Shown: positions 1 to 37,617 of the stretch, piece after piece
How positions within the stretch are numbered: position 1 is the first letter of the stretch
How the letters are laid out: each line of letters begins with the position of its first letter
Assembly (NCBI GenBank): GCA_052055015.1
Contig: JBQJIT010000051.1
DNA: 40,520 bases
Source: Malassezia furfur
Lineage: Eukaryota
Reading direction: 5' to 3' (one strand)
The notes under the pieces: generated by a model
Told to the model about the DNA's origin: nothing
Database searches by the model: none
What the model saw: the letters and a program-made list of their open reading frames with translations, nothing else
Translations under genes and position numbers: made by a program

Positions 1-2295
1 CCCACGGGCATCGTCTCGGCGCGCTGCAGCGGGCGGCGCGCAAACGCGTGCATCAGGGAGGGTGGTGCGCGTGCGCCGCCGATCTCGTCGGGCACGACCG
101 GCCGGCGGCTCGTCGCGGCGGCGCACGGCGAGAAGGAGGCGTCTGCCTCGAACGACGAGTCGCCCGTGCTGCTAAAGCTCGTGTCGCGCTCCACGGGCGC
201 CGCGAGGTCGCCCGTGGCACGCGGCGCGGGCGGCGCGGGCGGCGCAATCGACTGCGGCGCGCCTTGTGCGTTGATGCGCGCCGACATCATCGAGAGGGCG
301 GCGTAGTGCTCGTCGCCGTACGCAAAGCTGCGGTTGCGCACAAACTGCTTGCGGAAGCCCACGAGCTCCTCCGAGCGCCGCCGCAGGAAGCGGGGGTCGT
401 CCATCGTCACGTACGCACACGGCGTACACAGCTCAGGGCACGTACGGAAAAACTCGGCGTACCCGCCCTGCAGCACGTACACGTCTGGGAAGTGGCACCG
501 CGGGTAGTCGCTCGCCAGCGAGCGGTCGGCGGCGCGCAGCGCCAGCGCCATCGAAGGGCCGCGCTTCCAGCTGAACTCGCAGTGGAAGATGACGAGGAAC
601 TTGCGCGTGTCGCCCGCCTCGTCGGGCATGCCGCTCTGCGTGCGCTCGGGCAGCGGCTGCGCGGCATGCAGGCCCTGGCCGGGCGTCAAAAAGTACGTCT
701 GCACCTGCTCCACGGTGTTGAGGTTCGTCGCGCCCACAATGTGGCCGCCCTCGTGCTCGTACGCAAAGCGGCAGTCGACAATCTGGAATCCCCGGATCTG
801 GTCGTTGTAGCGGCCTTGCAGCACATCGCGCACCGTCTCGGGCTTGACGCGCATCAGTCCATCGCTCTTCACGGCAAAGCATGGCAGCGTTTTGTGGTCC
901 ATCTCAAACGACCCAAACCCGGGCACACCCGGCGACACGGGCGCGCTCGGCGCGGGCGCGAGCATATGGTTCTCCTTGTCCGCGGCATCCAGCGTCACGT
1001 TCAGCGTCGTCTGGCACCGCCGTGCGCCCAGCCCGACCGGCCGGCTCTTGCGCAGCGACGCGCGCACCGGCGAGCCACAGTGCAGCGCCGGCGCCGAGCC
1101 GCCGAGCATCAGCGCATCGTCCGACTCGTCCGCAACGGATGTATCGTTCGCCCGCGCCGCTGCCGCGCGCGGCGAGAGCGTCGGCGAGGGCACGGTCGAC
1201 ACCAGCACACTCGGCGCGTTGTGCGTCCCTCGCACTTCGGCGTGGGAAAAGACGCCCGATGCATCGGGCAGCGCCTCGGCGCTCCGCACGGGGTACGGCG
1301 AGGAACTCGGCGAGGAGCTCGTGGGGAACCCGGCCGGATCCAAAATGCTCCGTGGCACCATGTCCGCTGGCACGCCTTGGGCCACCTGCGGCGACTCAGG
1401 GTGGAAAAAGTAGTCACCCATGCCGCGCGGCGACGCTGCGGCGCGCGAGCCCGTCGCAAAGCACGGACGCTTCACCGTCTGAGGCCCCGAGAACGACCAT
1501 GAGTCGTCCGCCGACTCGTTCGACGTCGGCGGTGCAGGTAGCAGTGACGGCAGCAGCTGTGCCGAAGATGACGCGTGCGCGTCGGTTGGGCGCCATGCGG
1601 TAGCCTGTACTGTCAGCATCCTCATCCAAACATACACTTTGGGAACGGCCATGTGTACGGACCACACGGTCGCGGTTCCAGTCGCGTGCATCCTTGGCAT
1701 CCTCGTCGCCTGACTGCGTCAAACGCTGGTCCATCAGCGGGTCACTTGCCCGCTGGAGCTGTCGCAGCGACGAGAGTCGTCGCTTCATGGGCGGCTCATG
1801 CGGCGGACTGAGGCTGTGCAACTCCGTTTCGGAGGGCAGCTGCGGCAGGGAACGGCGCACCGTCGGGTCGGTACGCCGCGAGAGCGGCTGCCGCACCGGG
1901 TGCACCAGTGCAGCAGGCGCGGGCGCGGGCGCCGACACCGCCTGGAACGCGGCGGGCGAGGAAATCTCCATCGCGTGTGGGGAGCTTTTGGGATACGACG
2001 TTTCGATGCGATTGCGAGTGCCCCACAGCTCCGGCTGCGGGGCGCGCATCGCCGCCGAGGGCGATAAGGTGAACGGATCCTCGGTGAGCACGTCGCGCGT
2101 GGTGGTGGTGACGCGCGGGCGCGGCGGACCGCGGCCCGGGCTGTCGAGGGACGAGATGGACATGGACGAGCCAAACGAGTGGTCCAGCTCATTCAACAGC
2201 GGCGCATCGCGCGCGACCGGCGAGGAGAGCAGCTGCGCCTCGTCCATGCCCCACGCAGCCGGCACAATGTGCGGGGAGGAGAGTATGGCCGCCAT
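1..2295 (-). CDS. CDC25: M-phase inducer phosphatase Cdc25/Mih1; 3' end runs off the window; intron 1605-1635
   Basis: Removing the 31-nt intron joins ORF 1414-2295 to a frame encoding IVDCRFAYEHEGGHIVGATNL, the catalytic loop FHCEFSWKRGP (HCX5R) and HFPDVYVLQGGYAEFF. No stop before position 1. Confidence 0.92.
1605..1635 (-). other. Spliceosomal intron, 31 nt (CDC25)
   Basis: GTATGTttggatgaggatGCTGACagtaCAG; removal restores the frame to the rhodanese domain. Confidence 0.88.
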
Positions 2296-2551
2296 GTACC
2301 GTATAACTACTCAAGAGAGGACACGGTAACAAAGACGAGGGGCTTGACAGGGACAAAGGCTCGCGCGCGCGGTCACCGTGCGGCACAGTGCTTCAAACAC
2401 ACCCACACCGCGTTCCAGTGACCCGACAAATTCTACCGCGCGTGTTGCATTTGCTCTGTTGGTCTGCGGCCCCGGCCGGGATGCGGTTGGGCGCGCCCCG
2501 ATCCACCAGAAACGCAGGCCCACCCGTCCTTCCTGCTACGTCACATTCGCG

Positions 2552-2590
2552 CACGTGAAGCCACGTGGTCAACGCTTGGCCGAAAATTTT
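2552..2590. promoter_or_regulatory. Tandem CACGTG E-boxes (2552, 2562) plus GAAAATTTT in the divergent CDC25/POL5 promoter
   Basis: Motifs read directly upstream of the POL5 ATG (2626); function inferred. Confidence 0.45.
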
Positions 2591-2625
2591 GTGCTCCACG
2601 CGCTTTTCCTGCAGCAGCACAGACA

Positions 2626-6093: not shown

Positions 6094-6135
6094 TCACGTG
6101 AACCGAAGCCCTGCGTTTCCCTTGCCACGACGAAG

Positions 6136-6440
6136 ATGAGCGCGAACCTGACGGAAGCCGACCAGAAGGAGCTGAACACGTTCCTGGACGCTGAGCAGTC
6201 GAAGGCGCGTATCCAGACCACCGTCCATGCGTTCACGGAGCGGTGTTGGGACCAGTGCGTCACCTCTTCGATCGGCACCCGCTTTGGCCGCGGCGAGGAG
6301 GCGTGCCTTGCCAACTGTGTCGAGCGGTACGTACATGTGCACTGACCCCAGTTTCTTGGACACGTCGCTGTTCATTGTGCGTTGAATGTGTGCTAATACA
6401 GGTGAAAAAGCTCGAGAGTCAGCGTGGCCTGGCTGCCTAA
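6136..6440 (+). CDS. TIM8: Mitochondrial intermembrane-space small Tim chaperone Tim8; introns 6327-6351 and 6377-6401
   Basis: Twin CX3C motifs (CWDQC, CLANC). The spliced product is 84 aa ending CVERFLDTSLFIVKKLESQRGLAA. Confidence 0.9.
6327..6351 (+). other. Intron, 25 nt (TIM8 intron 1)
   Basis: GTACGTacatgtgcACTGACccCAG; restores conserved CVERFLD. Confidence 0.9.
6377..6401 (+). other. Intron, 25 nt (TIM8 intron 2)
   Basis: GTGCGTtgaatgtgtGCTAATaCAG; removes an early TGA. Confidence 0.8.
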
Positions 6441-6956
6441 AAGATTCTGTGGTATACCCATTATCAAGAGGCATCGCTTCGCGAGAGCATCGTCTGCATA
6501 GTGGAGGACGCATAGCGTGCAGGCGCGTGTCCCAGCGAGACCAGGTTGCGTGCGCAGGAAATGGCGGGCGTGACGGGCGGTCCCCCGCTCAGGCAGAGAG
6601 CTGTATGGGCGGGGCGTGTTGGTCATGTCGCCTGTATCCCCATGGGCGGATGTATGCTGTCTATAGACGTCGAATGCAATTCCTAGAATTGAATATGTCA
6701 TGGGCATGCGTGCCTATGTGCCCTGCACGCCCCAGGCGTGGGGGTTCTCCGGCCGACGGTACCGGGTGGGAGTGGGGTAAATTTGTAATTATGGGGAAAG
6801 CGTGACCGGATGGTCAGACCCAGCGGCTGGGCTGTAATCAGGTACCGTCATCAACAAACGAACTGGACTGGATCCTGCGCCCCCTTTGTGAGCCGAGGCC
6901 ACTGTTAGGATTGGAGTATCTGATATATCCTCGTCGCATTCGCGTTTTGTGCCACT

Positions 6957-8382
6957 ATGGCCTCGTCTCACTCTAGTGGCTCCAATGTTGTCGGCGGGCA
7001 CTACCGCGTGGGCAAGAAAATCGGGGAGGGCTCGTTTGGTGTGATCTTCGAAGGCACCGACCTCTTGACGCACCAGCGCATTGCGATCAAATTCGAGCCG
7101 CGTAAAAGCGACGCACCTCAGCTGCGTGATGAGTACCGGACGTACAAGATTCTCAGCGGGAGCGTTGGTGTGCCCCAGGTGTACTACTTCGGGCAGGAAG
7201 GCCTGCACAACATCCTGGTCATTGACCTGCTGGGCCCCTCGCTCGAGGACCTGTTCGACCTGTGTGGACGCCGATTCAGCATCAAGACAGTCGTGATGGC
7301 CGCCAAGCAGATGGTACGTCGTCCGCGCGCTTACCCAGATTACCCGTGTGCAGGCCATCCACGAGCGCAACCTCATCTACCGTGACATCAAGCCCGACAA
7401 CTTTTTGATCGGGCGAAGCAGTAACAAGTCGGCCAAGACGGTGTACGTGGTCGACTTTGGTATGGCGAAGCAGTACCGCGACCCCAAGACGAAACAGCAC
7501 ATCCCGTACCGCGAGCGCAAGAGCCTGAGCGGGACGGCTCGCTACATGAGCATCAACACCCACCTGGGCCGCGAGCAGTCGCGCCGCGACGACCTCGAGG
7601 CGCTCGGGCATGTGTTCCTCTACTTTTTGCGCGGCTCGCTGCCCTGGCAAGGCCTCAAGGCGGCGACCAACAAGCAAAAGTATGAGAAAATCGGCGAAAA
7701 GAAACAGAGCACGCCGATCAAGGAGCTCTGCGACGGGTACCCCGAGGAGTTTGGCATCTACCTGAACTACGTGCGCAAGCTCGGCTTCGAGGAGACGCCG
7801 GACTACGACTTCCTCCGCGAACTCTTCACCAAGGTGCTCAAGAACCGCGGCGAGGTCGAGGACGGTGTCTACGACTGGATGCTGCTCAACAACGGCCGCG
7901 GCTGGCAGAACGATTCGTCGCGTGAGCCTGCGCAAGACAAGCCGTCGGGCGCCCAGACGGGTACGAACGCGGCGATCGCCTCCGGGCAGGCTGCGACGGG
8001 CACCGCCGCTACGCAGGGCGGCGCGAACCGACTCAAGGCGCCCGATGCAGCTGCCGGCGTGAGCACCACCGAAATCCGCACCGAGCAGGGCGTCCCGGGC
8101 CTCTCTGAGCAGAACGGCAAGTCGCGTGGTGCCACCAGCGCCGACGCGCAGCGAAACACGATGCGCTCGCCGACGACGGGCGCGGCGAACGGCGCGTCGA
8201 ACCGGTTCGACGATGGCCAGTCTCCCCGTACATCGCAGCCGAAACGCGACGCCAAGCGCGCCGATGCCCCCGCAGCTTCTCAGGGCGCCAACGCGTACTA
8301 CCAGCGCCCACTGTATAATGCGCCGGAGCGTCGCTCCTTTGGTCAACGGTTTGTTGACTTCTTGCTCTGTCGCTGCGAGTAG
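6957..8382 (+). CDS. Casein kinase I (Yck/Cki, CK1-gamma type); intron 7314-7338
   Basis: [41 protein letters not shown] and [10 protein letters not shown]-terminal CRCE suggests lipidation. Spliced length 466 aa. Confidence 0.95.
7314..7338 (+). other. Intron, 25 nt (CK1)
   Basis: GTACGTcgtccgcgcGCTTACcCAG; joins AKQM to [12 protein letters not shown]. Confidence 0.93.
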
Positions 8383-8504
8383 CGTAGGCCCTGCTCTCCT
8401 GTACTACTGCGAAAACCCCCCAGATGTGCAAGCACCCACTACGATCTTTATTTAGTATCTGCGAATAGTCGATGGCGTGATCCAATTTTTCTCCCCGCTC
8501 TTCG

Positions 8505-10088
8505 ATGTCGTCCCGCGACGCAGGCACCGCCGTGCCATCGGCCGCGCTTAAGCGTCCGACCCGCATTGCGGTCATCGGCGCGGGAAGCGCGGGACTGGCC
8601 ATGGCGCAGCAGGCGCTCGACGTCGGCCGCGACCAGGTGCAGCTGGTCGTGTTTGAGCGCGAGGGCCACGTCGGGGGGTTGTGGCATTACTGCCCGACAC
8701 CAGGGCCATGCGAAGTGCGCGGCGCAACCGATGGCTCCCCGGGGCTCGCGCGCTTCGCCGACTGGCCCGACCACCCCGCGCTGCCGCCCAGTGCGATGTA
8801 CGACGGTCTGCGCACCAACATTGCCTCGGATATTATGGCGTACCGCGACGAGCCTTTCGTGCAGGGCCTGTCGCTGTTCCCAGCACGAGCAGATGTCGAG
8901 GCCTACCTAGACGCCTTTGCGGACCACTACGACTTGCGCAAGTACATACGCTTCCACACGCACGTCGTCCACGTCGAACGCTCGCAGCACATGTGGAGTG
9001 TGACTGTGCGCGACGCGCAGGGCGAGCGCACCGAGGCGTTTGACGCGCTCGTCTGTGCACAGGGCCGGTGCTCGGTGCCCTACATTCCAAGCATTCCGCA
9101 CATGGACCGCTTCCGGGGGAAGCAGCTGCACAGCGCATGGTACCGCTCCCCAACCGAGTTCCGGGGGCAGCGCATTTTGGTGGTGGGGAGCAACTCGTCG
9201 GGATGCGACATCACACGCGAGCTCATGGGCGGGACGGTGCGTGAGTTTCCCGGCGTGGACGAATGGCAGCGCGATACGCAGCAGGATCCGCCGCGCACAC
9301 AGGTCGAAGTGTTCCAATCGTACCACAACCCGGACGAACCCCCGCCAATGGATTACGACCCGCGCGATCCGCAGGCGCCCGCGTGGTGCAAGCGCATTCG
9401 GGTTGTGGGGCCCATCACGCACGTCGACACGGATGGAGCACTGGTCCTGCGGGACGGGACACGCTTGACCAACATCGACACCATCGTGTGGGCAACTGGG
9501 TTCTTGTACCAGGTGCCATTTACGACACGCGGCGAGCCGTTTGTGTCACGGCCCCTGATTCCCCCCGTGGGAACGCCGGGCGTGCGCGTTGCGCCCGAGG
9601 CGAACGCCGCCTCGGTCCTGGAAAACATGGACGACTGGCTGCTCTTTTACGAGGGTGCACCGAACCTCGTCTTTTTGGGCCTGCCCAACCGCATCGTGCC
9701 CTTTCCACTGGCACAGCTCCAAAGTCGCGTCGCAGCGAACGTGTTCCTCGGGAAGATGCCACCCTTGCCGCGCGTACGCAGCGACTTGCCCATGAGCGAC
9801 CCGCAGCGCTGGGAGCCACAGCCAGCGAACGACCACCACTCTCAGCCGTTATGGCGCGACTGGACGTTTGGCGCATCGTCGGAAATTGCCTACCACGATG
9901 CACTGCTCGCGCTGCTTCCGGGCCCGCAAAGCAAAGAGCGGCCGCCGGGCGAGCAGCAATACTTGGAGCACAACGACGGACGCGGCGAGGGAGTGCATCC
10001 GCCCGAAGGCTGGTACCAATTTGCGCAATGGCGTCGTGACCGGCGCATTCATGGCAAGGAGCTGCGCCGCGAGACGCTGGGATACTAG
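8505..10088 (+). CDS. Flavin-containing monooxygenase (class B FMO)
   Basis: GAGSAG FAD motif, GGLW, FMO fingerprint FRGKQLHSAWY, NADPH-binding VVGSNSSG, WATGF. Confidence 0.92.
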   Translation: MSSRDAGTAVPSAALKRPTRIAVIGAGSAGLAMAQQALDVGRDQVQLVVFEREGHVGGLWHYCPTPGPCEVRGATDGSPGLARFADWPDHPALPPSAMYDGLRTNIASDIMAYRDEPFVQGLSLFPARADVEAYLDAFADHYDLRKYIRFHTHVVHVERSQHMWSVTVRDAQGERTEAFDALVCAQGRCSVPYIPSIPHMDRFRGKQLHSAWYRSPTEFRGQRILVVGSNSSGCDITRELMGGTVREFPGVDEWQRDTQQDPPRTQVEVFQSYHNPDEPPPMDYDPRDPQAPAWCKRIRVVGPITHVDTDGALVLRDGTRLTNIDTIVWATGFLYQVPFTTRGEPFVSRPLIPPVGTPGVRVAPEANAASVLENMDDWLLFYEGAPNLVFLGLPNRIVPFPLAQLQSRVAANVFLGKMPPLPRVRSDLPMSDPQRWEPQPANDHHSQPLWRDWTFGASSEIAYHDALLALLPGPQSKERPPGEQQYLEHNDGRGEGVHPPEGWYQFAQWRRDRRIHGKELRRETLGY

Positions 10089-11083
10089 GACGGCTGAGCC
10101 TCCCATAGGTGTACAGAACCGCACGACGATGCAGATGCAAACTGTGCAGCACTTGTTTCTGGACTGCGCTCGGTCCAGAGCACCGTGACCGGGGTACGAG
10201 GCGCGCGGCGATAGCGCACACTTTGGGAATAGTCCGGACGTTCCTGCCACTGCAACCGCCCCGAGACGGTATCCCACGCATGTACGCTCCCGTTCTCGTC
10301 GCCAGCAAGCACCAGCGATTCGTCCAGGGACATGGTCGAGTGGCACCGGAACGAGCTCTGTTTGTGGCCTTGGAACGACTGCAAAAGCGACCCATCCACC
10401 ATGTCGAGCAGTCGGTGCGTGGAGTCGAGCGACGAGATCAACAACGCACCACCGTCCTTGGTGGGCGTGAGCGACGTGATTGGCTCATCGATCACGTCGG
10501 ACCGGATCTCGCCTTTGCGCAGATCATAGGTGCGCACGACGCCATCGACAGATGCAGTATGGAGCGTCGTGGGCGTCGACATCGCCAGCGTGAGAATCGC
10601 ATCGGTCGCATCGTCGACCTCCATTATGGGACGCCACGCGCTCGCCGTGCGCAGATCATACGCACGACAAACAGTGTCACTTCCAGCCACAAAGAGCACA
10701 CTGCCCTCGTCATGCGCGCCTGCGAAACGGACATCGTTGACTCGACCGGTGTGTGCGTTGAAACGGCGCAGGACCTGCCCGCTTGCCACGTCCCACACCA
10801 GCGCTGCCCGGTCGGGACCTCCGCTTGCAAACCGCGTATTGTCTGGTGCGATGTCGATGCACAGCACCTCGTACGAATGGGCGCTGTACCGCTGAATGGG
10901 CGTCGAGCGCCCCTTCGCATCGACTTCGTCGCCGACATCGGCGTGCACACCCCACAAATGGATTTGCTGGTCGGCGCCACCTGTCATAATGTAGCGCCCC
11001 GTCGAGTTATAGCGGGCAACATGCACCGCGCCAGCATGTGCCTGGATGGTGCGCCTCACGGCATACCGCCGACCTGGGGGCAT
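10085..11083 (-). CDS. WD40-repeat protein, WDR83/MORG1-like
   Basis: WD repeats with AHAGAVHVARYNSTGRYIMTGGADQQIHLW, SVDGVVRTYDLRKG and SSLDSTHRLLD. First ATG at 11083; the track start is GTG. Confidence 0.8.
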   Translation of the reverse strand: MPPGRRYAVRRTIQAHAGAVHVARYNSTGRYIMTGGADQQIHLWGVHADVGDEVDAKGRSTPIQRYSAHSYEVLCIDIAPDNTRFASGGPDRAALVWDVASGQVLRRFNAHTGRVNDVRFAGAHDEGSVLFVAGSDTVCRAYDLRTASAWRPIMEVDDATDAILTLAMSTPTTLHTASVDGVVRTYDLRKGEIRSDVIDEPITSLTPTKDGGALLISSLDSTHRLLDMVDGSLLQSFQGHKQSSFRCHSTMSLDESLVLAGDENGSVHAWDTVSGRLQWQERPDYSQSVRYRRAPRTPVTVLWTERSPETSAAQFASASSCGSVHLWEAQPS

Positions 11084-11121
11084 GACGTGCAGACGTAACG
11101 TTCCTGCCTCCACATTCCATC

Positions 11122-12222
11122 ATGTCCGAGACGCCCGGCTTCCCAGCGCTACAGGGGGACTGGCTCGAAGAAGTCATCTTTCTCGGGACAGGTACAAGCT
11201 CCCAGGTGCCTTCGATCTACTGTGTGACGGACCCGAATACGCAGTGTAAGACGTGTCCCGATGCGATGAAGCCGGGAAGCCCCAACCGACGAGGATGCAC
11301 GTCGGCTGTGGTGGTCGGTGCTCCGCGCGATGCACCTGACCAGAAAAGTACCATCCTGATCGACTGCGGGAAATCGTTCTATACATCGACGCTCGAAACC
11401 TTTCCTATGTATGGCTTGCGCCGTATCGATGCCGTGCTCCTCACCCATGGGCATGCCGACGCCATTCTGGGCCTGGATGACCTTCGCGGGTGGACCATGC
11501 ACGGATGCATTCAAGACTACGTCGATGTATACCTCACGCAAGAATGCATGAACACCGTGCAGAGCACATTTCCTTACCTTGTGGATACCAAGTTTGTGAC
11601 GGGCGGCGGCGATGTGGGAACCTTGCGCTGGCACATCATCGACGCTGCAAAGCCCTTTGAAGTCGGACGGCATCGCGTGCCGGTCACGCCTTTGCGCGTT
11701 GAGCATGGCTTTATGGGCCCGCAACGTCATCCCTTTGAGTGCCTCGGTTTCCGCATTGACTCTATGAGCTACGTGAGCGACTGCCACGCCATTCCACCCG
11801 CAACGCTCGACCTCATGGCGGGGAGCCAGTTGGTGGTGTTGGACGCCCTCAACATGTACCGCCACCCCAGTCATTTCTCGATACCCCAGGCCATCACTAC
11901 CGTGCTGGAGTTATCCACACGCGAGCATCCCCCCGCATTGGCCCTGTTTGTGGATATGGCGCACCGCGTCGAGTACCACGCGACAGAGGAGCAGCTCAAG
12001 GAATTGGTCACGCGACTGCGCGCGTTCCGCTCATCGCTATCGGCTTCGGTGAACAACGCATGGTGGTTGGAAGCGTGGGACGCAGATGAAAACGAGGCAC
12101 AGGCGTTCCTTGCGCTCCGTCCGGATGTGCGTACAATGCCAGAGTCCGGCCCGTCATGCCCTGAAGTGCCTGCCATGCACCTGGCCGTGGACAGACTCCG
12201 CGTTCTTTTTAGTAAGCCGTAG
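11122..12222 (+). CDS. Metallo-beta-lactamase-fold hydrolase (PhnP-like)
   Basis: FLGTGTS, ILIDCG, LLTHGHADAILGLDD, VEHG, YVSD, HPSHFS. Confidence 0.88.
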   Translation: MSETPGFPALQGDWLEEVIFLGTGTSSQVPSIYCVTDPNTQCKTCPDAMKPGSPNRRGCTSAVVVGAPRDAPDQKSTILIDCGKSFYTSTLETFPMYGLRRIDAVLLTHGHADAILGLDDLRGWTMHGCIQDYVDVYLTQECMNTVQSTFPYLVDTKFVTGGGDVGTLRWHIIDAAKPFEVGRHRVPVTPLRVEHGFMGPQRHPFECLGFRIDSMSYVSDCHAIPPATLDLMAGSQLVVLDALNMYRHPSHFSIPQAITTVLELSTREHPPALALFVDMAHRVEYHATEEQLKELVTRLRAFRSSLSASVNNAWWLEAWDADENEAQAFLALRPDVRTMPESGPSCPEVPAMHLAVDRLRVLFSKP

Positions 12223-12276
12223 CCGTAGTGTCGTGTGCGCAGGGGCCAGGTCGCTTGGGGTTTCCTATTATAACCA

Positions 12277-14505: not shown

Positions 14506-16763
14506 CTACACTTGCCAAGCGCCCAGCGGGTCGGCAGAGGCGTCGGGGCGCGGCGTCTCCGTGCGCGCCGAGCGGAGCTCCAAGTCGGGCGTCGCAGATG
14601 TGGGTGTTGCAACAGGCTTGGATGCCCACGGATTGGTCGACGGCGGTATAATGACCCGAGATTTCGTCTCGCCGCCCGGAGCTCGGTCAGCACCCAGGGG
14701 AAAGAGAGGTGGGCTCGCCGCATGACTCGTCTCTGCACGGCGGTGCGGGCTCGCCGTACGTGGCGATTCGGTGTGGTCAAACCCGGCAGAGCGCATTGCG
14801 CCCTGCACACGGCCCCACCCATCGCTAAAGAGAGAGCGCATTTTCGTTGTCGCCGCGTGCAGCGACTCATCAAACGAGTCTGACGTCTCGCCCCGCGCGG
14901 GTGCGGTGAGCGTATCGTTCGTGGCTGATGCGAGCCGCTCTTTAAGACGACGGTTTTCTTCTTTTTCCAGATCGAGACGCGAATTGAGCTCGGCATACGA
15001 CCGGCGGAACAGGTCCGTTGAAAAGCGCAACGCGTCCGTCGAGGGAAGCAGCACGCCCATGTCTCCGCTCGGGTCGCGCCGATTGTCCAGTGCAGGATTG
15101 TACTGTGCGTTCTTCCACCGCGCAACGATGTCCTTGTGCAACAACACGTCCCATACACTGGGCGTGCAATCGATGGGAGCAGGACCGTGTGCCCGAGGCG
15201 TGCGCCGCTCGCGTTCGGTATTGTACAAAAAGGTGCCCGTACTGCCAGCATACACCTGGCGTAGGAGCTCCGCAAGGAAAGCGCCGTTGAACTCGAAGCG
15301 GTCCGGGAACTGCGTCTGGAGCTGCGCGACACATTCCAGGAACTGGTGAAAGATGGGCGCACGTTGGTGCGCAGCCGTCGTCTGGAATGGCGAGGTGAAG
15401 TGCTTGGTGAAGTCCCAAAAGGAGCCACCGCCCTGCGAGTCGGCCAGTGGGTCATCCACGGGCGCGCCGTCCACGTCAAAGAGGGGTTCGTTGTGCGGCA
15501 CCCGGAGATCAAACTTGTCCGCACCGAGGCCCACAAGCCCGCTGCGTTCTTGGAATTGGTGCCCGAAACTGACCCAGTCCTTTTCAATGAGCACCGCAAA
15601 GCCATGGAGTGTGCGGTAGTACGGGTCGAGGCAGAGCGCCGCGAGGGATGTCAACTGCGCCGTACGGTCCCAACCGTCCGAGCAGTGCACAAGCACATGG
15701 GATGCATGGATGTGGACGTTGCGCACAATCATCAGCGTGCCTTCGAGCAGGTCGCCCACGTGTTTGAGCCAGTTGGAGCGCCGCAAGGCGATCTGATCCA
15801 GCGGCGCAGGCGGCGTGCCCTCGATGGACGACCGGGTATCTGCACGGAGCACCACGAGTGCCCGATTCAGTGCATCGCGCATCACATGGATGTTTTCGAC
15901 ACCGAGGTACACTTTCTTGCAGTTGCGGTAGTGCTCCATATTCTCGGTACCTGCGCCTTTGGCCATATTCGCCATGGCATTGGTCGTGGGGCGCGCATCG
16001 ACCAGCAGGTTCGTGGCAGTCGATCCGTACACACCATGAGCATGATCGTCTGTGACGCTGGTCTCGAAGATCGCCTCGACCAGTTTCTCGTCCTGCACGG
16101 AACGATTCTGCTTGATGCCGACAAGCGGCTGGCTGCATCGCGTGATGGTGCCCTGCCCTGCCCAATGCAGGTAGGTCAAGAGTGGAATACGCCCTTTGCT
16201 CCGGTGTTTGGATGCGTACGCCAGCGTCGCATCACTGATCAGCGCCGGGACGACAAGCAGGGCAGGATACGTCGGGATCAACGAATAATCGCTGTTGATG
16301 GTCGAGAAGCGCCATGCCTTGCTCGTAGACCCCACCCCCTGCCGCTTGAACTCGGCCGCAGGGTTGTATATCCGCCATCCGTCGCTTGGTGTATTGTGCG
16401 GCGCCTCAAACGCGTACAGTTTTTCCACCGAGTCTGGGTGAGCCGCGTCGACGTACCAATACTTGCAAGCGCGCGGAGCTTTTCGGCAACACGGAGGAGT
16501 GTGCTCTCGTCCCGAAAGCCGAGCACAAAACACTCGTGCGTGTACAGGTAGAGAGCAAGGAGGTACCGCATACCCCCCGTACCCCGCGCCATTGCCGAAG
16601 CCTCCCGCTTGGCCTGCGCTATGAGAGCAATCTCCCAGCGCTCCTCTGCACCATCCCATGTCAAAATTACGTGATGGGGCGTTATCTGCACTGTACAAAA
16701 AGTGTCCACACCTGGCCGGAGTAGCCACACATCCTGCACCTCCTCCAGGATCGGCGGCGCCAT
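14506..16763 (-). CDS. YMR1: Myotubularin-family PI3P phosphatase; intron 16434-16456
   Basis: Catalytic HCSDGWDRT, plus [14 protein letters not shown] and EKDWVSFGH. Own ATG (MAPPILEEV) with a PH-GRAM-like first exon. Spliced length 744 aa. Confidence 0.88.
16434..16456 (-). other. Intron, 23 nt (myotubularin)
   Basis: GTACGTcgacgcgGCTCACcCAG; gives [16 protein letters not shown]. Confidence 0.82.
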
Positions 16764-16814
16764 GCTGGCCGTCGCGTCCACGCTGTGGGCGTGCGCACCG
16801 CACGCGCCACGTGA

Positions 16815-18486
16815 CTATACCAACCGTTTCGTCATGTCTGGGTAAGTGGAGGGCATACGTACATGGGCCTTCGAGCTCGTAGCCGAGCCGTCGGTAATAG
16901 TCGCGCGTGCCGACACCCGAGATCACGGCGAGCTTCACGCTCCCGTGCTCATCGCGAGCGATCTGCTCGGCCTGCTCCATGAGCAGCGTACCGAAACCCT
17001 GATGCTGGAACTTGGTCGGGTCGCGGCTGTGAAGCGGCACCGCACTGCCGTAGGTATGCAGCTCGCGCACAATCGACGACTGCCCGTCCTTGACCAGCTC
17101 GGGACGGTAGGTGCCGGTAGAAGAGCACTTGCGCAGTCGAAGCAGTGCAACAAGGATGTCCTTCTCGGGGTCTTCGTAGGACAAAAACGATTCCCAACCC
17201 CCGTTCGCAGTATAGTCGCGCCGAATAAACTCGATCTCTTCGGGTCGCACCTTGGTGTGGATCTCGTGCAGGCCCACCTCTCGGTATCGCACATCCCGGC
17301 ATGTCACACCAAAGTCGCGCATGCGTTCGAGCGCCATCTCACGCAGGTTGCCATTCTCCACACCCGAAGAAACGAGCGGCATGGGGATGTCGCGCTGGAC
17401 ACGGTATACACGCGTCCACGGCGGGACGAGTGCGAGGATCCGCGCAATCACGTCTACCAGGAACGAAGGCGTGTAGTTCTTGTACCGCCCCGTGCGCCAG
17501 AGCTCATACAGGCCCGTGCCGCGGATCACCAGGGTAGGATACAGCTTGAGACCGTCGGACCGGAACGCGGGGTTCTCAAAGTACTCTTTGAACTGCTCCA
17601 TGTCGCGCTCCACCCCAACGTTGGGGAGATCGGGCATCATGTGCGCCACGACCTTGTATCCTGCGTCCTTCGCGAGATGAAAAGTTTCGCACACGGCCTT
17701 GACGGTATGTCCACGGTTGGTATCACGCGCAACATCTTCGTATACGCTCTGCACGCCAATTTCCAGGCGCGTGCAGCCATACCGTAACATTTGCGACAGG
17801 TGCGGCCGCAGACAGTAGTCTGGCCGCGTCTCGATGGTAATCCCGATACATTTGGTCTGTGCACGCTCCGAGAAGCGCACAGCCTCATCCACATCGAGGC
17901 CTGTGTACCCACTGAGTGCATTGTGCAGCTGTGCAATGAATTGGTTGCGGTATTCTTCCGAGAGACTCATAAAGGTGCCTCCCATGATGATGTATTCCAC
18001 CTTGTCGACGCTGTGCCCCAGCTCACGCAACTGCTGCACCCGCCCTCGACTTTGTTCGTATGGATCATAGCGCGCGCGGATGGCTCGCATCGAGGTCGGC
18101 TCGTAGCCCGTGTACGACTGTGTGCTGTACTCGAAGTCGGAGTCAGGGCCGCCAGGGCAGTAGACACAAATGTTGCCGGTGAGAGCAATATGAGGGCATC
18201 GGTGCGGCTTGCACATCACTGCGACGACTGCAATGCCACTCGCACTGCGCACGGGCTTGGCGCGCAATGCGGGCACGAGTGCCTTGCGGTAGGCATCAGG
18301 GATAGCGGCGATGATGTCGGTCAAGCGAGGAACGCCACCATATCCGTGTTTCTTGCACGCTGCGCCGCGAATGGCATTTAGCGATACAGGACGGGATTCT
18401 TCGTGTGCCTGTACAAGCTGGGACGCGATGTCGGCGCACACGCGCAGCAGGCACTCTGCCGACGTCGTCGCCGTCGACACGCCCAT
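16815..18486 (-). CDS. ELP3: Elongator catalytic subunit Elp3 (radical SAM + GNAT); intron 16838-16862
   Basis: [38 protein letters not shown]. Splicing gives the conserved end [15 protein letters not shown], 548 aa. Confidence 0.96.
16838..16862 (-). other. Intron, 25 nt (ELP3 terminal intron)
   Basis: GTACGTatgccctccACTTACcCAG; restores GPYMxK. Confidence 0.9.
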
Positions 18487-18564
18487 CGTGAAAAGACACT
18501 TTTTTGGTGCGCTGAGTCAGCAAGACCCTGGCAGCGCACAGTCCAACCCCGGGTCACGACGATC

Positions 18565-21345: not shown

Positions 21346-21346
21346 G

Positions 21347-23092: not shown

Positions 23093-23248
23093 CTGTCGGT
23101 CAGTTTTGCTCAACAGCGGAGCGGGTGTGCGTGATTGCTCAGAAAAAAATAGGCAATATAGGTTTGTCCTCGCTTCCCCGAAGGGATCGGATCAGGTCTG
23201 TGTATTTGTTTCATCCTGGCAAACACGCACAGCCCCCCATGTACATAC
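23093..23248 (-). other. 156-nt intron hosting a snoRNA (non-coding host or GID4 5' UTR)
   Basis: AG|GTATGT donor at 23248, branch ACTGAC and CAG acceptor at 23093. No protein frame spans it. Confidence 0.72.
23135..23221 (-). ncRNA. snR56: Box C/D snoRNA, snR56/U25(SNORD25)-like 18S rRNA 2'-O-methylation guide
   Basis: Box C variant AGGATGA (23217-23211), guide CACAGACCTG complementary to conserved 18S CAGGUCUGUG, D' CCGA, a UUCG hairpin, TATTGCCT complementary to adjacent 18S AGGCAAUA, box D CTGA (23142-23139), and terminal stem gtgcgtgtttgc/gcaatcacgcac. Confidence 0.8.
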
Positions 23249-26285: not shown

Positions 26286-26448
26286 CCGACGCACAACGTG
26301 GAGAGGAAGCGCCGGTTGTGTGTGTTGATGTGGGTGTCTGCACGGCCCTGCACGCCGCGTGGCGCGCCCAAACACACACGAGCAATTTTCCGAACAACAT
26401 CTACACCTCCACATGGGGATTCCTATTGCGGCAAAGGCAGTGACTTGG

Positions 26449-29264
26449 CTACGCGTCCTGGCCGGGCGTCGTCGCGGCCGAGGTGAGCCGCATCAAGGCC
26501 TCGGTCGCGCGTGTCGGCGTACGGGGGGTGGCGAGCGGCAGCGCGCTGCCGTCCTTGGTGAGCACCCGCTGCGGTGCATCCGCGCGCGGCTGCCACGGCG
26601 CGCCGACTCCGCTGCTGCCGCTGCTCTTGCGCGGCGTGCGAATCTCGGCGCTGCGCGCGGGCAGCCACGGCGACCGCGACGTGAGCAGCTGCGCGGCCAA
26701 CAGCGCGTCCACATCCTCCCACGCCTCCACGTCCACCCAACTGTACGCAGTGCCGGGCGGCAGGCGGAGGGCGTCGCCCGCCGTCGCTTCGTGCGTCTCG
26801 AGACGCGTGACGCGCGCCACGAGCCAGTCGCGCCCGGCGGTGGCGCGGCGCAGCGCCTCAGTCATGCGCAGGTAGCAGTACGGGTTGTGTAGCTGAAACG
26901 CCATCCATCGCGCGTCGCGCGTCTGCGCGGGCAGGAAGAGTGCCACGTCGCCAGGCGCAACATGGTCCAGCGACAGAGGCGCCTGCGCCGCGGCGGCTAC
27001 GCGCGTCTGCAGCCGGCGAATGTGCGCCACAAGCCACTCCATACGCCCGTGCACGTCGTCCAAGAAGCGATCTGGGTCCAGCGTCTGGAGCGCCGCGCGC
27101 GCGTCGGCGTCCGACAGCTCTTGGACGTGCACGGCGGGCGGATGCAGCGCATCCGGTGCGCACGCGTACTGGTGCAGCGCCGTGACGCGTGCGAGCAACG
27201 CGCCAACGTACGACCACTCGCGCTGTTCGCCGCGCAGCTTTTCCTGCACGCCGCTTAGCTCTGAACGCGCTTGCTCGAGCGTTTGGGTATCGACGACGTG
27301 TAGGGCACTGAGCCGCTCACTGATGCGCTCGAGCTCGGTGTGGATCTGCGTGCGCTGGGCACCCGCCTCGTGCGCACTTGCCTCCAGTCGCGAGTGTGCC
27401 AGGCTCGCGGCGCGCTGCAATGCGGCGCGCTCCTCGCTCCACTCGGCCGTGCGGCGCTGCAGCTCCTCCTCGAGCCGCTCGGAGCGCTGCTGCGCGATCT
27501 GGAGCTGCCGTCGCAGCGTGTCGCTGAGCTGCTGCGAAGGCGTGGGCGAGTGCCGCGACGCTTCAGAGGCGTCGTCCGACTCGTCCTCGTTCAGGTGCAG
27601 CTCGCGCGCGGCGATCGCCGTAAACGTCGCCTCGGTGCGATCGAGTCGTGCCATGTAGTTCTGCAGCTCGGTGCGCACCTCGCTGATCAGTACCGCGGGC
27701 GCCGCGTGGTGCGTCTCGTGCTCGAGCACGCGCAGCCGCTCCAGAAACGCATCGAGGTCCTGGCGCGTAAGCGCATGCGTGTCGTTGGTGTCGCGCCGGC
27801 GCGTGGTCACGTCGAGCACAGGCGGCTGCATTTCAAGGACGAGCTCGAATGGCAGCTGCGACGCGATGTTTGTCGCGTACTCCATGCGCGCTGCGCGCTC
27901 CGACTCGGTGAACTGCGCCATGAGTTCGGCGAGGCGCTGGGCCTTATCCATGAACAGCGGCGTGAACTCGGTGCGGCGCACGCCCTCGACGAGCGAAGCG
28001 CCGTAGGCCCAGAGCATTTTTTTCAGCCGTTGCAACCGCTTGAATCCGTCAAGCTTCGGCGAGGCGAGAGCCGTATCGATCTCGGCCAGCGCCGCACCGA
28101 GGTCCGCGTAGTCGGACTGCAGACTGCTGATGTCTTGGACGAGATTCAGGTGCCGATGAACCAGCTCGTTGCGGTCCGACACGAGGTACGCCAGATTTTG
28201 TGTGGCTCGCGCGCAGTAGGCATCAATGCGCGCCGCCGTGCGGTTTACGTCGGTGGTATGCTCCAGCGTGCGCTTCGAATGCGCCGACAGATGCTCGTTG
28301 TCGTCCGGCGTGCTCTCATGTGGCACCTCCAGCTCACGCACGGCCTCAAGGGTACACTGGTACACCTCGCGGATCTGTGCCAGGGTCTCGGTGGATGGCT
28401 CAATGTGCGTATGGTTGATCTCGCCGACCAGGTCGGCGAGGTCCACGGCGAGCTGTACTTCGACTTGGACGGTATTGGCGTAGCGCGTTTGGAGCTCAGC
28501 AAGTTGCGCGCGACAGTCCTCTGCAGTCGTACGGATCTTCCGCGCGTCGACAAAATCGCCCAGCGTCGGCGGCTTGGCGTTCCGCGCAACGGGCTTGGCC
28601 AGCAGCTTGGCCTCGATGGGGACACGAGAAAGGATGTACAGGTCGTGCTCGTATCGTTGCAACAGCTCCTCCATCGAGCCAAGTTCCTTGGACGCAATCT
28701 CTTCGAGCGTCTTGATGGCGTGCTTGATTGTCACCGTGTGAGCCTGCAGGTTGGCAAGTGCAACGCGGGTGCTGGTGTGGATGCGCTCAATGCATGCATG
28801 CATGTCGCATGCCGTGTTATACTGCGTCTCGACCCTGTGCTGCACTTCGCGTGCCCACGCAAGCATATCGCGCAGTGCCGGCGACGTGGCCGGCAGCGCG
28901 ACGTGCGGTGGGGTCAGCTCCGGCTGCGGGTCCAACTCGAGCTCGAGCTGCGGCGCGATTGCATCGAGATCGGCATAGAGCAGCTTGCGGTCAAACACGT
29001 AAAATTCCTGTGTAAGTGCCACCACGAACCAGGTCTGCATCCCGCTCATACGCGAGCAGCTCGTCCATCGCGGCCTCGTTCACCTGGACCCCCTGCCTGG
29101 TGATGCAGATAATCGAGTCGTACAGGATCCCGGTCGCAAGCGACACGCAGTCGAGAAAGTGCTCCAGCCTGTGTGAGCCCATGCGCCTGGACGTACGTGC
29201 GAAACTGCCATAGTGTCTGCTTCACCTCGATCTCCCGGCCGCAGTACGACACCACCAGACGCAT
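26449..29264 (-). CDS. ATG11: Selective-autophagy scaffold Atg11; introns 29169-29196 and 29008-29029
   Basis: Coiled-coil body and claw domain (GDVALFLP...WMAF...PYCYL...DWLVARV), N-terminal EFYVFDR. Spliced length 921 aa. Confidence 0.87.
29008..29029 (-). other. Intron, 22 nt (ATG11 intron 2)
   Basis: GTTCGTggtggcACTTACaCAG; the donor that keeps exon 2 in frame with EFYVFDR. Confidence 0.72.
29169..29196 (-). other. Intron, 28 nt (ATG11 intron 1)
   Basis: GTACGTccaggcgcatggGCTCACaCAG; gives WQFRTLEHFLD. Confidence 0.78.
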
Positions 29265-29349
29265 CGCGGCGCACGGCGCATCGAGGGACCGTGCGGAGCA
29301 CTTCGCTGACACAATGCTGAATAATTTACTGACCGTCTTCTGCACCACG

Positions 29350-30363: not shown

Positions 30364-30374
30364 AACAAAATAGA

Positions 30375-31784: not shown

Positions 31785-31851
31785 GGCGTCTGAAACCGAA
31801 AATCGTCGCGCTGAGCTAAGCACACACGCTGGTGCGACTCCTCCACCGACG

Positions 31852-32817: not shown

Positions 32818-32818
32818 C

Positions 32819-33445
32819 CTATGAATCCTCGATGCCGTGCTGCGCCTTGCGCCGGTATATTGCCTATACCCATTAGTCTTTCCTTTCCCCACATACCTGG
32901 TCACGGAGCCACTGGCGGTACTGGTGAATCGACCCGATGCTCTCGCCGTAGTAATCGGGCACCGGGTTGTGCACCACTTGCCGCGTCGGATCGGCGCGGA
33001 GACGTTTGATGCGTGCATAGAACTCGCGGTCGCGCTGTGCGAACTGTGCAGCGCGGCTGCGATGCATGAGGGTCCATACGCCCACGCCGAGCGACGGCCC
33101 AATGAGCCAGCCGACGGCCGTGCAAGCGAGCGTCGCGCCGATATGGACAAAGAGTGGGTCGATACCGGCAATGGTCTTGCTCGGGTCGATTTCCAGTGTC
33201 ATGAAATACGACCCCGATGCGATGGCGGCGATCGCCATGGTCGGCACCGTCGAAATGAGCCCAGCGAGGCGCCGCTGGCGGCGCATCTGGAGGTCTGTGT
33301 GAGGCTAATTTTTGCACGCACATGTGGTCCAAGGGAGTGTGTTGGCATTTGGTGCCGCTGACGTGCCTGCGGCGCGTGCCGTGGCAGGAGTGTGCGCGCC
33401 AAGCGCCCGCGGCGCCGCGCGTAGACCCAGGCGTCCTACGATCAT
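32819..33445 (-). CDS. PAM17: Presequence translocase-associated motor subunit Pam17; introns 33295-33321 and 32864-32896
   Basis: LPWTTYLQMRR after splicing, two TM helices, [37 protein letters not shown]. 188 aa. Confidence 0.92.
32864..32896 (-). other. Intron, 33 nt (PAM17 intron 2)
   Basis: GTATGT...GACTAATgggtaTAG with an in-frame TAA; splicing gives WLRDQAIYRRKA. Confidence 0.85.
33295..33321 (-). other. Intron, 27 nt (PAM17 intron 1)
   Basis: GTGCGTgcaaaaattagCCTCACaCAG with an in-frame TAG. Confidence 0.85.
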
Positions 33446-33548
33446 GGTGCGAGAGATCACGTGCACTTTCACGTGCGTGCACGGAGACGGCGCTCTTCTT
33501 CGGCGACGAAGTGACGACGACTGCGCTTTCGAACGGACCTACTACACA

Positions 33549-35000: not shown

Positions 35001-35127
35001 GTGGAGTGTGCGCGACGACCTGCACACCGCCCGCTTTGTGTTCCTACGTATTTTTTTCCGCGCGGCACGTTGTAGATTCTGTGGCGGACGCCGCTGGGCT
35101 AGACGCCCGTTCCCTGTACCCCCTCCC

Positions 35128-35158
35128 CCAAAAAATAAAAACCTTTTATATTATACAT
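35128..35158. terminator. AT-rich putative bidirectional 3'-end/polyadenylation element between DHH1 and the Pmp3-like gene
   Basis: caaaaaataaaaaccttttatattatac, including AATAAA and TATATT, in a GC-rich context. Confidence 0.4.
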
Positions 35159-35163
35159 GGCGG

Positions 35164-36232
35164 CTAGAAGGTGTGCTCGTACTCCATAATGTCGCGCTCG
35201 GGCGCCGCCGACGCTGCGGCAGGGCGTTCGGGCGTCGAGGGGTGGTCGTACACACGCTTCGGCGGGCGCGTGCGCGAGCGCGAGCGCGTCGTGCTGGGCG
35301 CAGCAGCCCATGCCGCCGTCTCCTGCCTGCTCGCACGCACGGGCGGCACGCGCTCCTGCGTCGAGAGGCCGAGCAGCTCGCGGTCCAGATCGTCCATTGT
35401 GTCGGTTGGTGCGGTGGTAGGTGCGGGACGGCGGTAGTTCATCGTCGTCATCTCCTCCTCCTCAAACTCCTCGTAGCTTGGTTCGGTGCGAGGCGTGCCC
35501 ATGGCATAGTCGATGCGCGAGTGCCGGTCCATCGTGGGCGTGCCGGCATGTCCATGGCCGCCAAACAGCTTGCGTGTGCGGGACATCAGCGAGCGGTTCG
35601 TGCGCCGCGACGAGCCCGAATCCACCGACAAAATCGACGGCGTAGCAGTGGGGTGCGTTGGCCTGCTCGACGTCCCATAGAAGCGGTCCGGCTCGACGAG
35701 CGCGTCGGGGTCCGTCGCGACGTCGCTCTCCTCGTCGTCCTCCGGGCGCCGGCGGGGGCCGGAGCGCATCGCCGACGGAGCGTCGAACTCGTTCGTCTCC
35801 GGGTTAAGGTAGTATGCACGCCCCTCTTCGTCGTGCTGGACGTGATCGGGGACATAGAGGTAGCGGTCGGCCCACTTGCGATTCGAGCCCGTCGCATTCG
35901 CCGGGTTGACGACCAGGCCGCACTTTTTGAGCCATGCGGGCGTGCGCTTCTTGCTCGAGTTGTCGCGCACGCGCTGGATGAAGAAGTTGTGGAGCTGCGT
36001 GTGAGTGCGCGCGACACGTACGTGGCCGGGGATGTACCCCAGGATGGTGAGGATCACGTTGATGAAAAAGTCGGTGCCGATACCGAACCGCATCGCGACT
36101 GCGAGCGGCGGCACCAAAATACTGAATAGCACGATAAAGAGAGCAAATGCATGTCGTGGGCTTGGTCGCCTGGGTGAGCGGCGCAACTACGCACAGTTCG
36201 CGACGGTTGCCCGTCAAGCCCATAAACGGCAT
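35164..36232 (-). CDS. Pmp3/YqaE (UPF0057) domain membrane protein with long hydrophilic C-terminus; introns 36170-36194 and 35995-36021
   Basis: ILVPPLAVAMRFGIGTDFFINVILTILGYIPG is the Pmp3 signature. Spliced length 338 aa. Confidence 0.82.
35995..36021 (-). other. In-frame, stop-free intron, 27 nt (Pmp3-like intron 2)
   Basis: GTACGTgtcgcgcgcACTCACacgCAG; read as VRVARTHTQ in the ORF track. Confidence 0.78.
36170..36194 (-). other. Intron, 25 nt (Pmp3-like intron 1)
   Basis: GTGCGTagttgcgccGCTCACcCAG; links ATG 36232 to the main ORF. Confidence 0.78.
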
Positions 36233-36280
36233 GACGGCGGGCGGAGACAATGTGGAGGTGCGTATCTAGCGCAGGGCTAC

Positions 36281-37617
36281 CTACTCTAGGTCCGCGGCGT
36301 CCGGCTCGGCGTCGGCCGGCTCGATGATGGAGCTCGCGGGCTGCCAGACCATGACGATGTTGTCCTCGGCGGCAGTCGCTACCTTGCATGGATCCTGCGG
36401 CGACCACGCCATGTCGGTGGGGCGGCTCGTGTGCCCGCCGTGCACAAACAGCAGCTCGGCCGGCCCGTCCTCGGCGTCCTCGGCGGTCTGCTCCTCGCCG
36501 ATGCGGCTCAGGTCCCAGATGTTGACGCGGCGGTCGGCCGACGCAGACGCAAGCATCGTCTCGTGGTGCGGCGACCACGCAATCTGCAGCACCTCGTCGG
36601 TATGCGCCTCGAGCGAGTGCAGCGCGACGCTGAGATTCCGCAGGTCCCACAGCGCGACGGTCTTGTCGCTCGAGCCGGTAGCCAAAATGTACTCGCTCGC
36701 GAGGCTAAACGCGACCGCGTTCACCTCGGCAGTGTGCGCCTCGACGCGGTGCTTGGGCGAGTCGGGCGACTCGCGCGTGTCCCACAGGAGCATCTGGCGG
36801 TCGTCGCCCACGGACGCAAACAGGTGCTCGTGGAAGTTGTGCCACGCGACATCCTCGACAATCGACGAGTGCCCGCGGTACGTCTGCACGGGGTCGAGCA
36901 CCGTCTTGTCTTTTTGGTACGCATTCACGTCCCAGTGGCACACGGTGGTGTCTTCGGATGCCGCGAGAATGTGCCCCTGGCGCACCGGGTTCCACGCGAG
37001 GCCGTAGCCCTCCTTGGTCTGTCCGCGCAGCGTGATGTCTGGCCGGCACTTGCCGTCCGGGTCCGGCTGGTTGCTGTGCTTGGTGCGGTCGAACACGTAG
37101 GTGAGTCCACTCACGGCGCGCGTTGCGATCAGATCGCAGTTCTGGGGGCAATACCGCGCGCGGTTGACCTCGCCATCGTGGTTGATGCGCTGCGTGATCT
37201 GGATCCGCGGCATCGTCGAGGAATACGAGCCAATTTCTGCGTGAGCATGGCGCAAACACGTACCGCCCTTTTCCTCGTCGTAGTCCTTCATCTCAAGCTT
37301 CGCGTCGCCCTCCGCGTCGGTGAGCGGCAGGTTGGCCGACGCAATCTGCACGTAGTTCTGGTCCTGCCCGGAGGTGTGCGTGCCCATGAGCAGACGGTGC
37401 CGCGCATACCCCTTGTCGGCAAACACCTCCTTGTCCGGGAACCACTGCATCGTGAGCGTCGGCCACTCGAGCGCGTGCGTGATGACCATGTCATAGAGGA
37501 ACGGCGAATTCTTCTTCCAGACTGGGTCAGCGCGCGACACGTACTCTTGTACTCCTCGTTGGATATCATGGCCAGGTTGGCCGACGCCGCATCCTCGGCA
37601 ATGTCCACGCCCGCCAT
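36281..37617 (-). CDS. HAT2: Histone-binding WD40 protein RBBP4/7 (Hat2/Msi1/Mis16 family); introns 37522-37544 and 37237-37263
   Basis: NEEYKIWKKNSPFLYD after splicing, LEWPTLTMQWFP, HDGEVNRARYCP, EDAEDGPAELLFVHGGHT. 428 aa. Confidence 0.92.
37237..37263 (-). other. In-frame, stop-free intron, 27 nt (HAT2 intron 2)
   Basis: GTACGTgtttgcgccatGCTCACgCAG; removal gives conserved YDEEKGEIGSY. Confidence 0.87.
37522..37544 (-). other. Intron, 23 nt (HAT2 intron 1)
   Basis: GTACGTgtcgcgcGCTGACcCAG; restores invariant EEYKIWKKN. Confidence 0.92.

Follow-up and report, generated by a model that had tools for sequence, protein, structure and literature searches.

Fourteen putative U2-type micro-introns of 22–33 nt in nine genes of a Malassezia furfur contig

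The locus and its intron-like segments

The DNA analyzed here is a 40,520-nt stretch of contig JBQJIT010000051.1 from Malassezia furfur (assembly GCA_052055015.1), called the window below. It is GC-rich (60–72%, and 64% over its whole length), and Pfam matches together with a codon log-odds segmentation place about 23 tightly packed fungal genes in its 40.5 kb. Nine of these genes carry our subject, 14 segments of 22–33 nt that resemble spliceosomal introns (Table 1). They lie in HAT2/RBBP4, PAM17, ATG11, Tim8, casein kinase I (CK1), ELP3, and genes of the Cdc25-like rhodanese phosphatase, myotubularin and Pmp3 families. The segments are very probably ordinary U2-type (GT-AG) spliceosomal introns, shrunk near the physical minimum in the compact Malassezia genome.

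The host is a Malassezia species, M. furfur or one very closely related to it, by the best named matches of three proteins. Pam17 is matched best by M. furfur (98% identity) and Atg11 by M. brasiliensis (87%), and the named matches of Hat2 are M. yamatoensis (93%) and Malassezia sp. CBS 17886 (86%). Rfam and tRNA scans of the window gave no snRNA and no tRNA, and the sole Rfam match was one snoRNA.

The segments are recovered by a single regular expression, GTNNGT...CTNAY-N(0-5)-YAG, applied to both strands with a length limit of 45 nt. It gave 19 matches, and 14 of them have, in identical order, the lengths that the original prediction had listed for its introns. All 14 are sense-oriented in genes that Pfam and codon statistics define independently.

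The chance level was estimated by Markov simulations of orders 1, 2 and 3, with 100 simulations each. Matches of up to 35 nt numbered 19 in the window against simulated means of 3.4, 1.85 and 2.17 and maxima of 11, 6 and 8, respectively. The strict donor form, GTRCGT, occurred 12 times against means of 0.86, 0.49 and 0.61 and a maximum of 3. Eleven of these 12 strict matches are introns of the set, and the twelfth is the antisense of a conserved CK1 peptide, LRDEYRTY.

Outside the set there are five matches, which are antisense, intergenic or have a poor donor, and chance would give about as many. One of them is an in-frame 30-nt GTCGGT...CTGAC-CAG segment on the sense strand of a metallo-beta-lactamase-fold gene, just before its Pfam domain. 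This match is probably due to chance, as its donor is atypical and its branch A lies only 4 nt from the end. A relaxed GT..AG scan that required only open frames was rejected as uninformative, since the GC-rich sequence yielded hundreds of spurious candidates.

Structurally, the 14 segments are uniform. Their mean length of 26.1 nt (366 nt in total) is near the published Malassezia mean of 30 bp. All begin with GT and end with AG, and the donors are all of the GTNNGT class, namely GTACGT in eight, GTGCGT in three, GTATGT in two and GTTCGT in one. The acceptor is CAG in 13 and TAG in one. Every segment has a CTNAY motif, which is CTCAC in six, CTGAC and CTTAC in three each and CTAAT in two. This motif conforms to the yUnAy type, and its A is the presumed branch point.

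The A is 17–24 nt from the 5′ end, within the donor-to-branch range of 17–25 nt that had been proposed. Its distance to the 3′ end is exactly 5 nt in 10 of the 14, and 6, 7, 8 and 9 nt in the remaining four. The spacer between CTNAY and YAG is 1 nt in the same proportion, 10 of 14, and adds up to 24 nt over the whole set. Hence, the 3′ end is a nearly fixed CTNAY-N-CAG module. The form CTNAYNYAG has 20 copies on the two strands of the window, 10 of them within the introns.

The spacer from donor to branch is 7–14 nt long and consists of 62% GC, 41% pyrimidine and 17% T, so that none of the 14 introns has a polypyrimidine tract by its composition. The introns as a whole are 57% GC against 64% for the window. 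No donor or branch motif of the 14 introns fits the minor (U12-type) pattern, which we take to be a /RTATCCTT donor and a TCCTTAAC branch.

These measurements agree with the original prediction in the dominance of GTACGT and GTGCGT donors, the degenerate branch sites and the missing polypyrimidine tract. Its branch-to-YAG spacer of 0–5 nt does recover all 14 introns, but the emphasis on a range was misplaced, given the 1-nt spacer in most of them.

The same anatomy bears on whether the segments could be removed by another route, either DNA elimination or RNA splicing of the Ire1/tRNA-ligase type. Their size is like that of some non-canonical excised elements, and nothing specific speaks for such a route. 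However, the segments have GT-AG ends, an extended donor and, at a constant position, a yUnAy-type motif, and these are the defining signals of the spliceosome. Moreover, RNA-seq junctions support 99% of the curated introns in M. sympodialis, where they are of the GT-AG, GC-AG or AT-AC types to which they were filtered (PMC5389616). We thus give a non-spliceosomal removal hardly any credence.

Table 1. Positions of the micro-introns, of the other motif matches and of further features in the window
Feature	Position (strand)	Length (nt)	Phase	Donor	Branch motif	Remark
Cdc25-like rhodanese phosphatase intron	1605-1635 (-)	31	0	GTATGT	CTGAC	branch A 8 nt from 3′ end
Tim8 intron 1	6327-6351 (+)	25	2	GTACGT	CTGAC	
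Tim8 micro-exon	6352-6376 (+)	25				between introns 1 and 2
Tim8 intron 2	6377-6401 (+)	25	0	GTGCGT	CTAAT	
CK1 intron	7314-7338 (+)	25	0	GTACGT	CTTAC	
Myotubularin intron	16434-16456 (-)	23	1	GTACGT	CTCAC	
ELP3 intron	16838-16862 (-)	25	1	GTACGT	CTTAC	near 3′ end of gene
ATG11 intron 2	29008-29029 (-)	22	0	GTTCGT	CTTAC	shortest of the set
ATG11 intron 1	29169-29196 (-)	28	2	GTACGT	CTCAC	
PAM17 intron 2	32864-32896 (-)	33	0	GTATGT	CTAAT	acceptor TAG; in-frame TAA if retained
PAM17 intron 1	33295-33321 (-)	27	1	GTGCGT	CTCAC	in-frame TAG if retained
Pmp3-family intron 2	35995-36021 (-)	27	0	GTACGT	CTCAC	in-frame, stop-free if retained
Pmp3-family intron 1	36170-36194 (-)	25	2	GTGCGT	CTCAC	
HAT2/RBBP4 intron 2	37237-37263 (-)	27	1	GTACGT	CTCAC	in-frame, stop-free if retained
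HAT2/RBBP4 intron 1	37522-37544 (-)	23	1	GTACGT	CTGAC	
Match outside the set	6832-6859 (-)					
Match outside the set	6832-6863 (-)					
Match outside the set	7122-7145 (-)					strict form, antisense to CK1
Match outside the set	7542-7563 (-)					
Match outside the set	11314-11343 (+)	30		GTCGGT	CTGAC	in metallo-beta-lactamase-fold gene
WD40-repeat gene	10085-11119 (-)					
Frame over Elp3 and myotubularin	14509-18516 (-)					1336 codons, stop-free
5′UTR candidate	18512-18539 (-)	28		GTGCGC	CTGAC	ends 26 nt upstream of Elp3 ATG 18486
Candidate snoRNA-bearing intron	23093-23248 (-)	156		GTATGT	CTGAC	ends CTGAC-CGACAG
Box C/D snoRNA snR56	23137-23221 (-)					Rfam, 55.6 bits
Upstream part of TTI1 open frame	36290-37900 (+)					antisense to Hat2

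Frame and collinearity over the junctions

The removal of the segments restores reading frame and collinearity according to three kinds of evidence. Eight of the 14 introns (in Hat2, Pam17, Atg11 and Tim8) were judged by comparing spliced models, built from the window sequence, with fetched homologues, and the spliced proteins are gap-free over the junction in most of the homologues that span it. Two others, in CK1 and Elp3, agree on removal with solved structures, and the remaining four are placed by codon statistics and gene logic. Four of the 14 lengths are multiples of three and the other ten are not, and in-frame stops occur in two of the four. Hence, 12 of the 14 need to be removed for a full-length protein.

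For Hat2, 19 homologues were aligned. Sixteen of them span the first junction, NEEYK/IWKKN, and 15 of these show no gap there. The exception (P0007) has a 6-residue insert exactly at the junction. The second junction, DEEKG/EIGSY, is free of gaps in 15 of 19. Retention of intron 2 would insert nine residues, and only P0002, an open reading frame (ORF) call of the same species, shows this insert. At that site, two further Malassezia-like ORF calls have inserts of 13 and 6 residues with unrelated sequences.

Pam17 gives a similar picture, and its exon 2 matches the Pfam Pam17 profile, which has 165 positions, from 25 to 156. Its first junction has no gap in 15 of 16 homologues, and the sixteenth (P0124) is without the N-terminus. 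The second has none in 14 of 16, and both exceptions (P0125 and P0129) diverge exactly there, as expected of read-through.

For Atg11, four of the ten fetched homologues include the N-terminus. Junction 1 is gap-free in all four and junction 2, DL/EFYVFDR, in three, with a 2-residue gap in P0186 that lies 6 residues upstream. P0186 is a more distant relative with an uninterrupted ORF of 967 residues, so its alignment is independent of any intron prediction. Intron 2 is also the sole short GT..AG candidate that has a branch-like motif and links the exons of 46 codons (29030-29168) and 852 codons.

Tim8 has a micro-exon of 25 nt between its two introns. Exon 1 matches the 64-position Pfam Tim10/DDP profile over positions 2-49 and PDB chain 3cjh_B over residues 1-46. 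If intron 1 is left unspliced, a stop follows 6 codons into it, and the spliced protein reads CVE-R-FLDTS. If intron 2 is left, the protein ends with ...FIVR and a stop, and splicing gives the tail KKLESQRGLAA. The doubly spliced protein is gap-free over both junctions in 18 of 28 Tim8-family representatives.

Some relatives read through an intron position without any insert, namely P0189 at Tim8 intron 1, P0003 at Hat2 intron 2 and P0186 at both Atg11 introns. The alignments thus suggest that lineages of Malassezia and its relatives differ in whether they have these introns. The spliced models are also matched over their junctions by public models of M. furfur Pam17 (P0122), Malassezia sp. 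CBS 17886 Hat2 (P0004) and M. brasiliensis Atg11 (P0178). Hence, some of these gene structures are already in databases.

A different cause of the broken frames would be small indels from assembly or sequencing errors, with the motif matches being incidental. Ten of the 14 sites do coincide with a change of reading frame, as such errors would produce. However, an error would need 1–2 bases, whereas the gap-free register of the homologues needs the removal of 22–33 bases. Every break has the same donor, branch and acceptor grammar, 6–25 times above chance, and the ORF calls of other Malassezia assemblies break or have inserts at the same positions. Sequence errors are therefore an extremely improbable cause of the whole pattern, and splicing is by far the better account.

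For CK1, the last residue of exon 1 corresponds to residue 115 of PDB chain 1csn_A and the second residue of exon 2 to 117. The first residue of exon 2 is then at 116, so the exons abut at 115/116 of that chain. The Pfam Pkinase profile also breaks at the intron, between positions 108 and 111.

For Elp3, exon 1 ends in ...GP at residue 551 of 557 in the yeast protein (6qk7_C) and at 540 of 547 in 8avg_C. Splicing adds seven residues, YMTKRLV, and a stop, and the solved chains extend 6–7 residues past the exon end. The spliced GP-YMTK is matched to GPYMxK, which we take to be the ending of the Elp3 family. An in-frame 21-nt alternative with another donor (16838-16858) was rejected because only the 25-nt version yields GP-YMTK. 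As the original prediction had it, removal thus brings out all three of its motifs, EEYK/IWKKN in Hat2/RBBP4, GP/YMTK at the Elp3 C-terminus and CVE/R/FLD in Tim8.

For the remaining four introns, codon log-odds per codon were compared between frames, and the exon frames scored +0.42 to +0.48 against negative values in the others. The Cdc25-like intron joins a 220-codon upstream exon (ATG 2295) to the ORF 3-1604. This exon scores +0.42 in its own frame, and at the intron the coding signal passes to another frame. A Pfam search gave no match to it, and the N-terminal region is not conserved.

In the myotubularin gene, exon 2 begins 4 residues ahead of LYAFE. As this motif corresponds to residue 195 of MTMR2 chain 1lw3_A, the gene needs a further exon for its N-terminus. 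The upstream exon (ATG 16763, 102 codons) scores +0.44 and has no significant match in PDB or Pfam. The Pmp3-domain ORF, likewise, is without a Met before its first membrane helix. An upstream exon of 12 codons supplies ATG 36232 and scores +0.48, over only 38 nt.

Pmp3 intron 2 appears to be an intron by its position and motif. The Pfam Pmp3 match runs to position 41-42 of 49 and stops exactly where the exon does, and the segment, which would insert VRVARTHTQ if retained, is a strict motif match.

This segment and Hat2 intron 2 might instead be translated, lineage-specific insertions. Each has a length of 27 nt and stays open in frame, and the prokaryote-style ORF call P0002 of the same species does translate the Hat2 segment. 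In contrast, 15 of 19 homologues are without a Hat2 insert, and the two other Malassezia-like inserts at the site differ in both length and sequence, which is the pattern of non-coding DNA. Both segments are also strict GTACGT...CTCAC...CAG matches, and the Pmp3 profile stops exactly at the exon end. Translation of the two segments is accordingly improbable, and we retain them as micro-introns.

Several points weigh against the splicing interpretation as a whole. Excision from the RNA is deduced from DNA sequence, and several of the supporting Malassezia proteins are themselves gene predictions rather than experiments. The introns of the Cdc25-like, myotubularin and Pmp3 genes (two in the last) have codon statistics and gene logic as their only support, and Pmp3 intron 2, being in-frame and stop-free, could in principle code. 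The branch point is also placed by sequence, and its distance of 5 nt to the acceptor is much below the 12-nt median of Schizosaccharomyces pombe.

The 3′ module, further candidates and gene models

In the proposed mechanism, standard U2-type introns would be reduced to three abutting signals. Each intron has three parts, which are a strong six-base donor, GT(A/G)CGT or GTATGT, a GC-rich spacer of 7–14 nt and the CTNAY-N-CAG module. These parts leave no space for a polypyrimidine tract, and intron definition is therefore the probable mode of recognition, with the three short signals read together and their spacing being part of the signal.

The fused module, with the branch A 5 nt from the 3′ splice site in most of the introns, is put forward tentatively together with possible 18-nt introns in a congener, and on the motifs at hand we regard this pair of proposals as rather doubtful. 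The latter come from P0007, the Malassezia-like Hat2 ORF call, which is 81% identical and has 6-residue inserts exactly at both Hat2 intron positions. Both inserts back-translate to 18-nt GT...CTNAC-AG segments, which was the case for only 8 of 4000 random 7-mers. Close by, P0007 has a third 6-residue insert that, by visual reading of the sequence, also back-translates to an 18-nt GT...AG segment.

If spliced, the 18-nt segments would equal the shortest known spliceosomal introns and would be shorter than those of any other fungus. This would imply a choice of the 3′ splice site without tract binding of the U2AF type, and U1 or U6 might show co-variation with the C at +4 in GTACGT donors.

The single snoRNA of the window, the box C/D snoRNA snR56, lies within a 156-nt candidate intron upstream of the Vid24/Gid4 ORF. 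The segment has a donor and a branch motif of the kinds found in the micro-introns, with a chance of about 0.004 for its flanks. As a candidate, it argues that short length may not be a strict or mechanical requirement. If real, it would mean that the same splice grammar also serves a long, snoRNA-hosting intron.

A further segment near Elp3, of the form GTGCGC...CTGAC-TCAG, was rejected as a coding intron. The frame upstream of it is without a Met, Elp3 can begin at its downstream ATG, and the coding frame does not need the segment. It may be a micro-intron of the 5′UTR.

Gene models are affected at the intron sites, as the original prediction had anticipated for gene finders. The NCBI model of M. 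yamatoensis Hat2 (P0006) has dropped about 50 residues at intron 2. For Pam17, the last intron is translated in the NCBI models P0125 (M. japonica) and P0129 (M. vespertilionis), which have read-through C-termini. Prokaryote-style ORF calls of Hat2, Atg11 and Tim8 give truncated proteins or inserted peptides at the intron sites.

Malassezia includes human skin commensals and opportunists, and default minimum intron sizes in gene finders, ORF callers and RNA-seq aligners give truncated, fused or insert-bearing proteins in this genus. The genus is culturable and transformable (PMC7426719). With thousands of introns at the lower size limit of the spliceosome, it would make a convenient system for studying splice-site choice where 5 nt part the branch point from the acceptor and a polypyrimidine tract is lacking.

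Long open frames occur elsewhere in the window. One stop-free frame spans both Elp3 and myotubularin, and the gap from the Elp3 stop (16815-16817) to the myotubularin ATG is only about 51 nt, so that ORF callers would merge the two genes. The 1410-codon open frame of TTI1 reaches about 1.4–1.6 kb upstream on the strand opposite to Hat2. The plus-strand coding signal starts from about 37673 and the Pfam TTI1 domains from about 38500 on, and the extension is an effect of high GC and no gene overlap. At the WD40-repeat gene, a longer plus-strand ORF over the same bases has a poor codon score and is without a family match.

Comparison with known systems

Introns of S. pombe carry a branch motif of the CTNAY type. 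They resemble those described here in being fungal and short and, under the mechanism proposed above for ours, in being intron-defined. They differ in being longer and in the distance that separates branch point and 3′ end, with a median of 12 nt as mapped by LaSSO against a mode of 5 nt here (PMC4079972).

In size, the introns fall into the class of those of ciliates and nucleomorphs, which are about 25 bp in Paramecium and, as cited in the same source, 18–20 bp in the Bigelowiella nucleomorph (PMC5014332). Intron definition would be a shared feature, and length is probably itself a signal there; introns of 3n length tend to have in-frame stops (PMC5014332), comparable to two of four here. 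However, these lineages are unrelated and their introns are AT-rich, whereas ours are 57% GC with an explicit fungal-type CTNAY.

Closer to the 3′ arrangement are Trichomonas and Giardia, which have a 12-nt fused motif of branch and 3′ splice site and short type B introns of about 25 nt, and a 23-nt Trichomonas intron was recently counted among the shortest known (PMC12316389). A contiguous branch-acceptor module, no polypyrimidine tract, an extended conserved donor and introns down to 23 nt are common to both systems (PMC12316389). There, however, ACTAA occupies -12 to -8 (PMC12316389), which puts the branch A farther from the acceptor than the 5 nt here, and those genomes are intron-poor, with 63 introns against thousands in Malassezia.

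The closest system is M. sympodialis. The curated annotation of strain ATCC 42132 holds 5350 introns, which average 30 bp, and RNA-seq supports 99% of them (Zhu et al. 2017, PMC5389616), and a review likewise states that Malassezia genes have very short introns (PMC7426719). The original prediction was right that short introns had been reported in the genus, and these two sources do not support the novelty it implied. The species differs, the window being M. furfur-like with 64% GC. Within the same genus, the gene density is alike at about 0.57 genes/kb here (23 in 40.5 kb) and 0.58 there, as is the mean intron length at 26 nt and 30 bp (PMC5389616).

A Malassezia donor and branch grammar or a 5-nt spacing from branch to acceptor was not found in full-text literature searches, which returned only intron size and number, and the supplements of PMC5389616 lay outside the search, so prior publication is possible. 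Taken against these systems, the Malassezia micro-introns are real, already published and ordinary for the organism. The modest leads that remain are the fused branch and acceptor module, whose presumed branch A lies nearer to the 3′ splice site than in S. pombe or Trichomonas, and the lower size limit, with the possible 18-nt introns of a congener.

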